From an uncultured archaeon (GTDB taxonomy: Archaea > Aenigmatarchaeota > Aenigmatarchaeia > QMZP01), in contig CAZCSS010000001.1 of the NCBI GenBank assembly GCA_964501515.1, positions 1-53,954 on the forward strand: DNA of 53,954 bases, written 5' to 3'. Position 1 is the first letter of the stretch; every line of letters starts with the position of its first letter. The notes under the pieces were generated by a model, which saw nothing but the letters and a program-made list of their open reading frames with translations, searched no databases and had not been told where the DNA came from. Shown here piece after piece: positions 9,707 to 44,449 of the stretch. A program made the position numbers and the translations under genes.

Positions 9707-10027
9707 GTTAATCTCTTGAATATTGGTCTGGAGATAATAAAAAGGTTTAGATGCAAAGGGCGCTGAAAAAGCAACGCCCCCTGCGTTGATGCTCCTGGCG
9801 GGATTTTCGCACATCCCCTTCATATTTTGATGAACTCTGGAGATTTGAGATGTGAGAGCTCCTGCAAAGGGGATTGTGTTTTTGAACCCGCGTCACAGGC
9901 TTTCTTCGCTCTCATGGGCTGCCGCACAGCAGCGGCAACCTCGAATCTTTCGAGCCGGGCCCGAAAGGCCTGGATCCTTGACCGGACTAGACGACAGGAG
10001 CATAGTTCTGGTTATTTGACACGGATA

Positions 10028-10035
10028 TTTAAAAA
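10028..10035 (+). promoter_or_regulatory. TATA-like box for tRNA-Ala
   Basis: tttaaaaa lies 25-32 nt upstream of the tRNA 5' end at 10060. Confidence 0.5.
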
Positions 10036-10059
10036 TAAATGTGTTCTATTGGTTTATGT

Positions 10060-10376
10060 GGGCTGGTAGATCAATGGTAGATCGCCCGTTTCGCATGCGG
10101 GAGGCTCCGGGTTCGAAACCCTGCTTTAGAGGATGGAACAAAAGGAAAGAATCAATGATTCTTTCTTTCCAGTAATTGCCTTCTGCAAAAAGCAGGGAGT
10201 AAAACCGCAAGCAACGCATAGGTGTCTGATTCCCTGGCAGCGAAGAGGAACGAAGTCCCTGCCCTTGGCATGAGTGCGCACTGCCAAGGGCAGGCACAGC
10301 ACATCTCTCGCAATATGCTGCGAGATTCCTTCGCTCCGTCTGCAGGGAATCTCCTTCGAGAATCCCGGCCAGTCCA
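10060..10376 (+). tRNA. tRNA-Ala(CGC), split as join(10060..10117,10363..10376) by a 245-nt intron at position 59/60
   Basis: The D-arm is GATC/GATC and the anticodon arm is CCCGT-TTCGCAT-GCGGG. The T-stem CCGGG (10107-11) pairs with CCCGG (10364-68). The acceptor GGGCTGG pairs with CCAGTCC (10369-75), giving G3:U70, with discriminator A73. The sequence immediately contiguous with exon 1 gives no acceptor pairing. Confidence 0.85.
10118..10362 (+). other. tRNA intron with a BHB-like junction; 245 nt and highly structured
   Basis: The central helix is TTCG (10112-15) with CGAG (10357-60), flanked by 3-nt bulges AAA and AAT. Internal perfect helices are 10119-27/10189-97, 10145-52/10158-65, 10228-36/10343-51, 10258-70/10282-94 and 10306-12/10319-25. 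Confidence 0.75.
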
Positions 10377-10410
10377 CAACTAATTTTAATACACAACAGA
10401 AAGGATAGTT

Positions 10411-10959
10411 ATGGTCTTCACATTGTACAGCTTTATAGAGGCGCTCTGGCTGATTCTCCCCGCGTACGCAGCCAACGGCCTCACCCCACTGATTGGGAAG
10501 AAAGGTTCCCTGCACAGGGTGGATTTCGGGAAAAGGTTTATGGGAGAGCCCCTTCTGGGAAAGGGAAAAAGCTGGGAAGGCCTTTTTTTCGGAAGCTTTG
10601 TGGGGGCCCTGGTTGCCACGATCCAGATGCTGGCCTTCCCTTATCTTCCGTTTGAAATGTCCCCATTGGAGCTCATGGTTGTTCCCATGACGCCCCTGCT
10701 GGGCCTTCTTCTGGGAGCGGGCGCGCTGACAGGTGACGTGGCCGGAAGCTTCATAAAAAGGAGACTCGGAATAAAGAGGGGTCAGTCTGCTCCGCTGCTC
10801 GACCAGCTGGATTTCCTGGCAGGAGCACTCCTCTTCTCAGGTGTTCTGGTTTCAGTGAAGCTGGAATGGGTTATCATGCTCTTTGTAATCACCCCTGTAA
10901 TTCATATCGCTGCAAGCTTGATAGGCTTCAGGGCCGGCATAAAGAAAAATCCCTGGTGA
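10411..10959 (+). CDS. carS: CDP-archaeol synthase (DUF46/CarS)
   Basis: LPAYAANGLTPL...HRVDFG...GKGKSWEG, followed by multiple TM segments. Confidence 0.85.
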   Translation: MVFTLYSFIEALWLILPAYAANGLTPLIGKKGSLHRVDFGKRFMGEPLLGKGKSWEGLFFGSFVGALVATIQMLAFPYLPFEMSPLELMVVPMTPLLGLLLGAGALTGDVAGSFIKRRLGIKRGQSAPLLDQLDFLAGALLFSGVLVSVKLEWVIMLFVITPVIHIAASLIGFRAGIKKNPW

Positions 10960-42976: not shown

Positions 42977-44284
42977 ATGCTGTCGCAAGCGCTTCCCCTG
43001 GCCGAGACTCTGGCCACTGCACTCACCTCGGTGTTTCTTGTGGTAATAATGTCCCATTATGCTGTTCTTCTCTCAAGAAAAGGAAAAAAGGAAGAGAATG
43101 GCTTCTCGCCCCCGCTGTCTGTCATAATCCCTGCCCACAATGAAGGAAAATACATAGCAGGAACAATCGAATCTGTCCTCAGGAATGGGTACAGGGGAAG
43201 GATTGAGATAACAGTAATCAACGACGGTTCAACAGACAACACAGAGGATGTGCTGAAAACATTCGGGAGAAAGATAAGGGTTATAAAAACAAGCCATGTA
43301 GGGAAGTCAGCCGCAATGAACAGGGCGCTAAGAACAGCAAAGCATGATATCGTAGTAACGGTTGATGGTGACACAAGGCTTGGGGACGGCGCATTGTCCA
43401 GACTTGTGGCGCCTCATAGGAACCCAGATGTTGCAGCCACATCAGGTTCTGTCAGGGTAGGGAATCCAAGGGGAATTCTGGGGATGTTCCAGAGGATTGA
43501 ATACTTCCAGATATCCCTGTTCAGGTCTCTCTGCGGAAGGGTGGGAGGCATGATATATACAGCCGGAACGCTCAGCGCATTCAAGAAGAGTGTCCTCATG
43601 GAGTCGGGCGGGTTCAGCAGAAATGTGCTGCTCGAGGACATTGATCTGGCGTGCAGGCTGCTTGCAAAGGGAAAGAGAGTGGTGTTCGTTGACAACGCTG
43701 ACTCGATAACAAATGTGCCGGAAACCCTGAAGTGGCTCGTGAGACAGAGAAAAAGGTGGTTTAAGGGCGGAATACAGATTCTGAAGAAGCACAGGGGGCT
43801 TGGAAGGAAAAACAGGGGGGCAGGCCTCTTCACGCTGCCCATAATGTCATACTGGTATGCCCATGCCAGTCTCATGGGGTTTGCAATAATTGCCCAGATA
43901 CTGCTCGGTTACTACACATTCTTTTATTCAAGCGGCGTGGTTTTCTCAAATGACGTCCTGCTGTTCTTCCTGAGCTGGTTCTCCCTTTTCGGAATAATTA
44001 ATCTTGCGTTCCAGATGCTCGCAGGCAACTTTCCCGTGACTTCGCTGTCCCTCCTTAACGTCGCGGCTGTGTCCATGGTATACGGCCTGATTGCTTATTC
44101 CATGTTTTGGTTCAGGGAAAGGGTAACGCTCAGGGATATCGTGGTCATGTTCTTCATGATGCCTTACTGGCTGTTCATCATGCTCATACAGGCGGGGAGC
44201 AATGTATACTGGCTTTTTTCAGAGCAGAGAAACTGGTGGGGGAAGCAGGGGAACAGACAACCGCAACCAGAAATGAAAGCATGA
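42977..44284 (+). CDS. Processive family-2 glycosyltransferase (synthase type, membrane integrated)
   Basis: LSVIIPAHNE, VDGD and QRKRW (QxxRW), plus N-terminal and several C-terminal TM helices. Confidence 0.85.
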   Translation: MLSQALPLAETLATALTSVFLVVIMSHYAVLLSRKGKKEENGFSPPLSVIIPAHNEGKYIAGTIESVLRNGYRGRIEITVINDGSTDNTEDVLKTFGRKIRVIKTSHVGKSAAMNRALRTAKHDIVVTVDGDTRLGDGALSRLVAPHRNPDVAATSGSVRVGNPRGILGMFQRIEYFQISLFRSLCGRVGGMIYTAGTLSAFKKSVLMESGGFSRNVLLEDIDLACRLLAKGKRVVFVDNADSITNVPETLKWLVRQRKRWFKGGIQILKKHRGLGRKNRGAGLFTLPIMSYWYAHASLMGFAIIAQILLGYYTFFYSSGVVFSNDVLLFFLSWFSLFGIINLAFQMLAGNFPVTSLSLLNVAAVSMVYGLIAYSMFWFRERVTLRDIVVMFFMMPYWLFIMLIQAGSNVYWLFSEQRNWWGKQGNRQPQPEMKA

Positions 44285-44449
44285 TAGCGGGGGTTGGATT
44301 CTCCAGTGGAAACCGGCGACCGGTTTGTTCTGCCTTTTGAACCAACGACCTTTGGGTCTCTCAGGAGCAAATCCCTATGAGCCTTTCGCAATCCCATGCG
44401 GTTTTCACGCAGGGGTTACAACGAGCACTCCAGGCTGCTCCACCCCGCT
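44285..44449 (-). tRNA. Initiator tRNA-Met(CAT) with three introns. Exons are 44449..44419, 44383..44376, 44357..44336 and 44298..44285.
   Basis: The acceptor AGCGGGG pairs with CCCCGCT, giving A1:U72. After splicing, the anticodon stem is TTGGG/CCCAA (G29-31:C39-41) and the loop is CTCATAA. The T-arm is GTTGG-TTCAAAT-CCAAC. The central helices are 4 bp for introns 1 and 2 (TCGT:GCGA, CTCA:TGAG) and 3 of 4 bp for intron 3 (TTCA:GGAG), each between 3-nt bulges. Confidence 0.85.

Follow-up and report, generated by a model that had tools for sequence, protein, structure and literature searches.

The question raised by this locus is whether a long and densely paired intron in an archaeal tRNA gene is a non-coding RNA in its own right or one product of a spreading intron family. 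The locus is a tRNA-Ala(CGC) gene on contig CAZCSS010000001.1 of an uncultured archaeon of the Aenigmatarchaeota (GenBank assembly GCA_964501515.1), a metagenome-assembled genome (MAG) of 0.98 Mb in 99 contigs that is about 92% complete and has 48% GC. The stretch analyzed, referred to below as the window, comprises positions 1 to 53,954 of this contig, in which the gene is interrupted by an insert of 245 nucleotides (nt). A preliminary description of the window proposed that this insert is an endonuclease-type, or bulge-helix-bulge (BHB), intron, and that the amount of pairing within it marks a special stable or functional RNA. The first proposal is borne out by the cloverleaf of the spliced product and by a relaxed BHB motif in the minimum free energy (MFE) structure of the precursor. 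The second fared differently. The stem that covaries is the h' helix of a mini-intron module repeated in hundreds of copies, the second structural domain of the intron has no homologue, and the tRNA-Ala(CGC) genes next to CarS in relatives carry 0–104 nt at the same site. The insert is probably an unusually long, composite intron of relaxed BHB (hBH-like) type that belongs to a proliferating intron family, rather than a non-coding RNA gene in its own right. The evidence does not support a conserved function of the entire excised RNA; that it is a functional stable or circular RNA remains unproven, and for the intron as a whole this is unlikely.

The exons leave little doubt about the identity of the gene. 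Exon 1 holds the 5' strand of the acceptor stem (GGGCUGG), the D-arm, the anticodon arm (loop UUCGCAU) and the variable loop, and ends with the 5' strand of the T-stem (CCGGG) and the T-loop nucleotides UUCGAA. Exon 2 supplies the 3' strands of the T-stem (CCCGG) and of the acceptor stem (CCAGUCC), the latter with U70, so that G3:U70 is present; CCA is not encoded. The G3:U70 pair is the definer of alanine identity. ARAGORN calls no tRNA at this locus in the unspliced window, and the Rfam tRNA model aligns with the unspliced gene only at model positions 7–64. For the spliced 72-nt product, which has the T-loop UUCGAAU and a canonical cloverleaf, ARAGORN returns tRNA-Ala(cgc); this product is 84–89% identical to uninterrupted tRNA-Ala genes of relatives. 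It derives from the sole copy of tRNA-Ala(CGC) found in this genome. A candidate TATA box, TTTAAAAATAAAT, is centered about 25 nt upstream of the 5' end of the gene. Sequence alone leaves the junction of the insert ambiguous between 55/56 and 59/60, since UUCGAA, the palindrome of the T-loop, recurs as UUCGAG at the 3' end of the intron. Only the geometry of the modeled splice motif fixes the junction, at 59/60. This position is the T-arm counterpart of the canonical 37/38 site.

In the unconstrained MFE structure of the 317-nt precursor (-130.7 kcal/mol), the acceptor, D, anticodon and T stems are all present, together with the helix between the T-loop and the 3' end of the intron, the 3-nt bulge at the 3' splice site, and two structured domains (domains 1 and 2) within the intron. 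The MFE structure lengthens the central helix H by the pairs A10116-U10356 and A10117-U10355. The 3' bulge is a clean 3 nt between H and the T-stem, and the 5' bulge is relaxed, with only A10118 unpaired. Both cuts, after 10117 and after 10362, lie 2 nt 3' of H, as in motifs of the relaxed class (hBH or HBh'). Moreover, the stem of the domain 1 hairpin begins 1 nt past the 5' splice site, where h' belongs.

The processing enzymes encoded in the genome are consistent with such a substrate. The sole splicing endonuclease, EndA, is a protein of 408 amino acids (aa) composed of two units of PF01974 type and one of PF02778. Its residues 18–408 align with the epsilon2 enzyme of ARMAN-2 (Candidatus Micrarchaeum acidiphilum), the structure of which is PDB 4FZ2 (PMC3488258), with E = 1.2e-89. 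Experiments have demonstrated cleavage of relaxed motifs at non-canonical positions by the epsilon2 enzyme (PMC3239211), and as of 2018 reports of this type were confined to Micrarchaeum and Mancarchaeum (PMC5829648). The RtcB ligase is also encoded, on contig C22 (518 bits). Because both enzymes are encoded, excision and circularization of the Ala intron would be enzymatically plausible, but they would be generic to the pathway.

The origin of the intron is indicated by its 5' part, which corresponds to a small repeated unit designated module M. This module, about 60 nt in length, has three parts: an 11-bp stem beginning 1 nt past the 5' splice site, a conserved loop, and a tail rich in A. 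It was traced through short matches within the genome to the T-loop intron of a class-II tRNA on contig C19, which starts with ACACAGCUUUUUAGAGGCUUCCGCCUUCUGCAAAAAGCUGUGGGCCAAAAACCACCUGCAAAA, and a unit of the same type lies in a tandem repeat at the end of contig C83. The nature of the C19 host was read from its acceptor, D-arm and T-arm; for both the C19 and the C83 host, spliced alignment by dynamic programming (DP) scored poorly. Eight copies without insertions, drawn from four genomes, have a mean identity of 76% when aligned and share an 11-bp consensus stem, four pairs of which show double-sided changes. The copy in the Ala intron has the same layout, with the stem CCCUGCUUU / AAAGCAGGG, inner pairing of AGAGG with CCUUCU, and the tail GAGUAAAACCGCAAGCAA, and it carries 45 extra nt in the apical loop compared with the C19 and C83 units. 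Its stem segments CCCUGC/GCAGGG are related to CACAGC/GCUGUG and CACCGC/GCGGUG by compensatory changes.

Counts of module M across the order come from a covariance model (R1), the E-values of which are rough. The model matches the 3' half of the Ala copy (10158–10216, E = 2.6e-4) and does not bridge the inserted hairpin. Of the 91 genomes of the order, 59 contain M according to this model, and each of the six families is represented; a genome may hold as many as 24 copies, and tandem pairs are frequent. The genome of G001, a relative with 42 intact tRNAs, has none. Among 45 copies, 97% of the cells in the stem are paired and eight of the 11 pairs are changed on both sides (70 cells), in an alignment (A2) that was fitted to the structure of the model, which inflates pair counts. 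None of 500 shuffles scored as high, and sliding the partner strand lowered the pairing to 36–65%. This covariation supports a splice-site helix of a repeated element rather than a dedicated non-coding RNA.

The contexts of M are varied. Its start invariably lies 1 nt past the exon/intron junction. The copies are preceded by GGUUCRAA in T-loops (10 of 38 copies) and by a sequence ending in GGUA in D-loops; others follow A/T-rich sequence. The hosts in the present genome are tRNA-Ala, the class-II tRNA on C19, tRNA-His (C21) and tRNA-Glu (C3), as well as the 23S rRNA, with copies at C69:1337-1384 and C76:2786-2819 (-) identified by Rfam LSU_rRNA_archaea matches. In two other genomes (G090 and G012; loci L143 and L147), M is found in the 16S rRNA. 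Thus, M occupies T-, D- and anticodon loops of different tRNAs in addition to 16S and 23S rRNA, the pattern expected of intron transposition, and it appears to spread by copying. In the present genome, both the 23S and the 16S genes are broken into fragments and carry interruptions, and taxonomy based on rRNA will be affected. Head-to-tail arrays of M are located at C72:3-175 (-; three units with a 61-nt period), C83:3381-3468 and C17:4940-5023, all at contig ends, and an A/T-rich stretch resembling a promoter lies ahead of the C72 array. In another genome, one M copy (L135, G022:C3 ~156483) directly follows the discriminator base of a complete tRNA 3' end. This copy could be the trailer of a split or permuted tRNA arrangement rather than an intron.

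Coordinates and evidence for the features of the tRNA-Ala(CGC) locus and for the splicing endonuclease are listed below.

Features of the interrupted tRNA-Ala(CGC) gene, its intron and the associated endonuclease (positions are those of the window unless a contig is given)
Feature	Position	Strand	Basis
tRNA-Ala(CGC) gene, two pieces and insert	10060-10376	+	read from sequence
Exon 1, acceptor 5' strand to T-loop nt 54-59	10060..10117	+	reading, Rfam, ARAGORN
BHB-type intron, 245 nt, T-loop position 59/60	10118..10362	+	reading, folding, ARAGORN on spliced product
Exon 2 (U60, T-stem and acceptor 3' strands, A73)	10363..10376	+	reading, ARAGORN
Putative archaeal promoter, TATA-box-like A/T stretch TTTAAAAATAAAT	10029..10041	+	inference from reading
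Outer helix h (T-stem)	10107-11 / 10364-68	+	precursor MFE
Central 4-bp helix H (U54 U55 C56 G57 with C10357 G10358 A10359 G10360)	10112..10115 / 10357-60	+	MFE, reading
5' splice-site bulge A58 A59 / A(i1), cut after 10117	10116..10118	+	geometry by analogy with canonical 37/38 BHB
3' splice-site bulge A10361 A10362 / U10363 (U60), cut after 10362	10361..10363	+	MFE
Domain 1, module M, long variant	10118..10214	+	family alignment, covariance model
Domain 1 outer stem (h' helix)	10119-10127 / 10189-10197	+	family alignment
Domain 1 inner stem UAGAGG / CCUUCU	10127-32 / 10180-85	+	family alignment
Domain 1 single-stranded tail GAGUAAAACCGCAAGCA	10197-10213	+	family alignment
Nested hairpin in M apical loop, holds 8-bp hairpin	10134..10171	+	MFE, one homologue
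Domain 2, closing stem 10228-36 / 10343-51	10228..10351	+	folding
Domain 2 hairpins, 13-bp and 7-bp	10258-10294; 10306-10325	+	folding
EndA, three-unit epsilon2-type	C71:3464-3964 (L123:1192-2418)	-	Pfam domains, PDB 4FZ2 alignment

The extra nucleotides in the apical loop of the Ala copy form a nested hairpin with a 10-bp stem (10144-53 / 10157-66) plus UGGAA/UUCCA. Insertions of about 45 nt in the same loop are also present in the M copies L074, L127 and L035. The insertion in L074 (865-972) is homologous to that of the Ala intron (GGAAGGAAAGAACC...GGUUCCUUCUUUCC vs. GGAAAGAAUC...GAUUCUUUCUUUCC), and the host of this composite is the anticodon loop of another tRNA. Across the 91 genomes, the signature of the long variant (module plus nested hairpin) was found only in the window itself; matches with one mismatch (L160 and L161) were attributed to chance. 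A MAFFT alignment of the two long copies (A3) was out of structural register and was not used for a model.

For domain 2, no homologue was found in the same genome or in 60–91 relatives. Domain 2 appears to be lineage-specific and may be a second M unit that has diverged and taken up additional hairpins, as on reading the two domains have the skeleton CCCUG...AGAGG...CCUUC...CUGCAGGG in common. The 13-bp hairpin was considered as a diverged M unit, and its covariance-model scores of 12 and 6.4 bits are too weak for such a claim. The region of the 7-bp hairpin is 88% identical to C32:1089-1118 over 33 nt, which may be chance. In another genome of the order (G073), the T-loop intron of tRNA-Ala consists of M plus an M with an insertion. 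The shared skeleton and this G073 intron are the reasons for suggesting that the Ala intron grew in tandem.

Taken together, these findings suggest the following scheme. In the precursor, the T-stem (h) would run into H, formed by T-loop nucleotides 54–57 and the last paired nucleotides of the intron. The 3' site would lie in the 3-nt bulge (AA/U), and the 5' site (AA/A) 1 nt before the stem of the M hairpin, which would serve as h'. The three-unit epsilon2-type EndA is predicted to cut at 10117/10118 and 10362/10363, after which RtcB would join the exons and the intron circle would be a by-product. By comparison with the family, the first 97 nt of the intron are a copy of the ~60-nt module with a hairpin nested in its apical loop. 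Domain 2 accounts for the other ~150 nt and was added in this lineage, perhaps as a tandem M unit that has since diverged; the intron would thus have grown by tandem duplication and nested insertion. Its dense pairing would then reflect this construction from hairpin modules, by tandem duplication and nesting, and the holding of splice sites 245 nt apart in one BHB motif.

The structural content of the intron is as strong as the preliminary description had stated. All five helices that it listed are exact Watson-Crick pairings (10119-27/10189-97, 9 bp; 10145-52/10158-65, 8 bp; 10228-36/10343-51, 9 bp; 10258-70/10282-94, 13 bp; and 10306-12/10319-25, 7 bp). The MFE of the intron is -97.4 kcal/mol compared with a shuffle mean of -71.3 +/- 4.4 (z = -5.9; 0 of 200 shuffles as good), which agrees with its account of a highly structured, multi-helix RNA, and the 317-nt precursor has a folding z of -5.0. 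Both CCCUG and CAGGG occur twice in the intron, and therefore an alternative topology exists, in which 10119-24 pairs with 10342-47 and 10192-96 with 10232-36. It is slightly favored in the free linear intron (-97.4 vs. -95.6 kcal/mol); in the precursor, the two-domain topology is the MFE and the alternative, as constrained, is 14 kcal/mol worse. However, strong folding is a class property of the introns of this genome, because the median folding z over the 32 introns of at least 45 nt is -2.1 and three other introns equal or exceed the stability of the Ala intron (-0.40 kcal/mol per nt). Several others have z values from -3.5 to -4.9.

The absence of coding potential and of known guide features, also noted in the preliminary description, was confirmed. 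The open reading frames (ORFs) of 75, 116 and 129 aa that overlap the intron have no Pfam match, and none is credible as an intron ORF. The nearest approach to a C box, AUGAUUC (10155–61), lacks the second GA, and no snoRNA model scores better than E = 3. At both gathering and permissive thresholds, Rfam gives no family at the locus beyond the partial tRNA match; miRNA and snoRNA matches at E = 0.3–7 were regarded as noise.

Conservation in relatives and compensatory changes had been named as checks on the non-coding RNA proposal, and each gave a divided answer. Domain 1 is conserved as module M, whereas a BLAST search with the whole intron against its own genome and 60 relatives yielded no significant homologue. 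Likewise, compensatory changes are abundant in the closing helix of domain 1 and weakly evident in the nested hairpin, and domain 2 has no homologue. The BLAST search gave many short matches to 10152–10205, in part module M and in part the low-complexity sequence TTCTTTCTTTCC. Among 5.8 billion proteins, none is more than 75% identical to the adjacent CarS, so that a comparison within the species or with a sister species is impossible at present. None of four fetched contigs with CarS relatives has a homologous full intron. The T-loop inserts of CarS-adjacent tRNA-Ala(CGC) genes measure 15 nt (L076), 39 nt (L039), 74 nt (L038 and L074) and 104 nt (L073), and the gene in L040 has 0 nt at this site and introns elsewhere instead. 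Across the tRNA-Ala genes of the order, T-loop introns range from 28 to 178 nt. In L073 and L074, the anticodon-loop and T-loop introns of tRNA-Ala(CGC) share the sub-module AACCCUUUUGG...CCAAAAGCGUUCGCGGAAAGAACGC.

Several points weigh against reading the insert as a composite BHB intron of this family. The motif does not conform to the strict hBHBh' form: its 3' half is canonical and its 5' side is not, the 5' bulge is 1 nt in the MFE structure against the 3 nt required, and the h' strand (10119-27 / 10189-97) is separated from H by a three-way junction. This lack of contiguity is why the motif is classified as relaxed (hBH-like) rather than strict. The counts are also qualified by the shortened calibration behind the R1 E-values, the inflated pair counts of the A2 alignment, and the heuristic nature of the intron inventory described below, in which some micro-exons are DP artefacts. 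In the genome-wide comparison, the z of the Ala intron (-5.4) is the most extreme among the 32 introns. In addition, the nested hairpin has a homologue in L074 with a U-A to C-G compensatory change beside the loop, and for this reason part of the interior of the Ala intron appears not to be purely neutral filler. Finally, splicing and/or spread explain the conservation of the M stem, but the loop and tail of M are unpaired and nevertheless conserved across six families, which "junk plus splice helix" alone falls short of explaining. Because of this conservation and the tandem arrays, module M, more than this particular intron, may have an RNA-level function or a mobility mechanism. One tentative possibility is that M is an RNA-level mobile or functional element, released as a circle from introns and tandem arrays by EndA and RtcB and re-inserted into exposed tRNA and rRNA loops, e.g., by reversed cleavage and ligation, followed by fixation in DNA. 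The conserved loop and tail would then be a recognition surface for re-insertion or for a host function, and the 245-nt Ala intron would be a snapshot of element nesting and tandem growth.

These same observations bear on the idea that the 245-nt RNA, once excised and circularized by RtcB, or its M part, builds up in the cell and works in trans, whether as a guide, a regulator, or a protein sponge or scaffold, with the tRNA gene as its expression host in the manner of the Haloferax tRNA-Trp intron and its C/D box guide. The extreme stability of the fold, the presence of RtcB, the conserved unpaired loop and tail of M beside a covarying stem, and the conservation of the nested hairpin with a compensatory change in a second genus are all in its favor, and the M arrays behind promoter-like A/T sequence could be stand-alone expression units. 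However, domain 2, which makes up 60% of the RNA, is unique to this genome, the corresponding genes of relatives hold from 0 to 104 nt at the site, the locus has no Rfam family and no C/D or H/ACA features, and the M stem lies exactly where the splice motif requires h'. A module that ranges from 0 to 24 copies per genome and is missing from the G001 genome with its 42 intact tRNAs fits a selfish element better than an essential RNA, and its loss from many healthy lineages weakens the idea further. A trans-acting RNA is thus an unlikely explanation of the intron, and a composite member of the M family remains the preferred one.

It is improbable that the insert is debris, such as an integrated-element remnant or a repeat, that has inactivated the gene. 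Both exons are intact and yield a perfect cloverleaf with all Ala identity elements, the 3' end of the intron is exactly complementary to T-loop nucleotides 54–57 with a 3-nt bulge rightly placed, and the promoter-like TATA stretch is kept. Furthermore, almost every tRNA gene in this genome is similarly interrupted, and therefore they cannot all be dead. Such a loss would be tolerable in principle, as a tRNA-Ala(UGC) gene is present on C69 and its product would read GCG codons; the departure of the 5' splice context from a strict BHB and the exceptional length of the insert, the longest T-loop intron found, also agree with decay. That the insert is a self-splicing (group I-like) intron or the remnant of a homing-endonuclease intron is hardly credible. 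The size is near that of small bacterial tRNA group I introns, and group I introns are reported to occur in archaea (PMC6125680), but a permissive Rfam scan of 9950–10500 gave no match to a group I or II model at E <= 10. The T-loop position, the BHB-type pairing to the exon, and the membership of the first 97 nt in a BHB mini-intron family argue against this origin, and the intron holds no LAGLIDADG or other endonuclease ORF, the overlapping ORFs being without a Pfam match.

The closest parallel for the splice site is the pre-tRNA-Cys(GCA) of ARMAN-2, which has an hBH intron at 59/60 that is cut by the epsilon2 enzyme (Fujishima et al., 2011; PMC3239211). The two cases are alike in the 59/60 site, the relaxed motif class, the endonuclease architecture, and a DPANN host with many disrupted tRNA genes. 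They differ in that the present host belongs to the Aenigmatarchaeota and that its 245-nt intron is multi-domain and modular. The disruption is also more extreme here, with about five recognizable tRNAs and up to 5–6 apparent introns per gene, against a maximum of three stated in 2011. For the spread of introns, "large-scale tRNA intron transposition" has been described in the Thermoproteales (Fujishima et al., 2010, as cited in PMC3239211 and in preprint 10.64898/2026.10.13.758758). According to these citing accounts, tRNAs of different types within one genome carry related introns there, also at different insertion sites, which implies spread by copying, as in the present case. However, the Thermoproteales are TACK archaea with an alpha2-beta2 enzyme, whereas the present host is a DPANN archaeon with an epsilon2 enzyme. 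Unlike the tRNA intron families outlined in those accounts, M is a defined hairpin-plus-tail unit of ~60 nt with strong covariation in six families, is also found in 16S and 23S rRNA and in arrays, and nests and combines into introns of up to ~300 nt. The intron families common to different sites in this order also contrast with Asgard archaea, in which introns are short (median 22–23 nt) and almost never common to different tRNA types (preprint 10.64898/2026.10.13.758758). The presence of M in conserved rRNA sites resembles the BHB introns in 16S rRNA of Thermoproteales (Jay and Inskeep, 2015; PMC4496867), with the difference that here one small module family is shared between tRNA and rRNA genes. 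No homing-endonuclease ORF was seen in the M copies examined. A literature search retrieved no description of such a module, or of such tRNA disruption, in Aenigmatarchaeota.

The tRNA-Trp intron of Haloferax volcanii (~105 nt, position 37/38) hosts a C/D box guide and is circularized. Its guide function is cited in PMC4090602. Like the Ala intron, it is a long BHB tRNA intron excised by EndA, the excised form of which could have a life of its own. The Haloferax intron, at 37/38, has clear C/D boxes and guide complementarity, whereas the Ala intron has UGAUUC rather than UGAUGA and no Rfam match. The enzymology that generates tRNA intronic circular RNAs (tricRNAs) in metazoans (PMC4536317), and circular introns and pre-rRNAs through EndA and RtcB in archaea, would likewise circularize the Ala intron. 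Here, circularity would be generic to the pathway, and the Ala intron circle is a prediction from the encoded enzymes. Dense pairing by itself is insufficient to make the Ala intron a dedicated non-coding RNA.

How archaeal tRNA and rRNA genes acquire BHB introns, and how these introns then multiply, has yet to be settled. Copying between sites has its only clear precedent in the Thermoproteales, and the Asgard census found almost no shared families. The present order offers a defined, covarying module with hundreds of copies, tandem arrays and nested composites, which makes the mechanism of spread, the co-evolution of enzyme and substrate, and the fate of excised circles testable. The hosts of M are genomes in which standard tools find 0–20 tRNAs, and M co-occurs with an epsilon2-type endonuclease. 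Unless M is modeled, tRNA counts as well as rRNA-based completeness and taxonomy of these MAGs will be badly underestimated.

The setting of the Ala intron is a genome rich in tRNA introns. Genome-wide, ARAGORN finds only five tRNAs, and five matches to the Rfam tRNA model exceed the cut-off; in relatives of the order, the number of recognizable tRNAs per ~1-Mb genome ranges from 0 to 42. An inventory based on a panel of mature tRNAs from G001, short-BLAST seeds, spliced-alignment DP, and an ARAGORN check of the spliced products yielded 19 validated split tRNA genes with 56 introns, from 1 to 5–6 per gene. Their lengths range from 12 to 324 nt (median ~45 nt). Most of the 19 genes have a T-loop intron, among which that of tRNA-Ala is the longest, and other long tRNA introns measure 299, 165, 161, 139 and 136 nt. 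A second family is common to different positions. The tRNA-Leu genes on C98, C22 and C21 share a 74-nt D-loop intron that is 98.6–100% identical in all three. Over 32 nt, the start of this intron matches that of the 299-nt anticodon-loop intron in tRNA-Ser(TGA) (C72:2692-3171) at 97% identity.

A few further observations were made in the window and in related loci. The ~350 bp upstream of the tRNA-Ala gene (9707–10059) contain no convincing ORF; R1 finds no M copy in 9900–10059, and the Rfam gathering scan of the whole window has no match in 9707–10059. The tRNA-Ala(CGC) gene is co-directional with CarS in the window and in L076, and it lies on the opposite strand to CarS in the metagenome contigs L073 and L074, the CarS of which are 71% and 67% identical to that of the window. 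Two tRNA-Ala T-loop introns of other genomes, L016 (G025:C3, 178 nt) and L027 (G042:C37, 100 nt), have internal tandem duplications of hairpin units of ~40 nt; growth by duplication is therefore recurrent. The window also contains an initiator-type tRNA-Met(CAT) gene at 44284–44449 (-) with several inserts, including one of 37 nt at the T-loop site. For its first insert, DP gave 20 and 15 nt around a 3-nt micro-exon, which is probably a single intron of ~35 nt.

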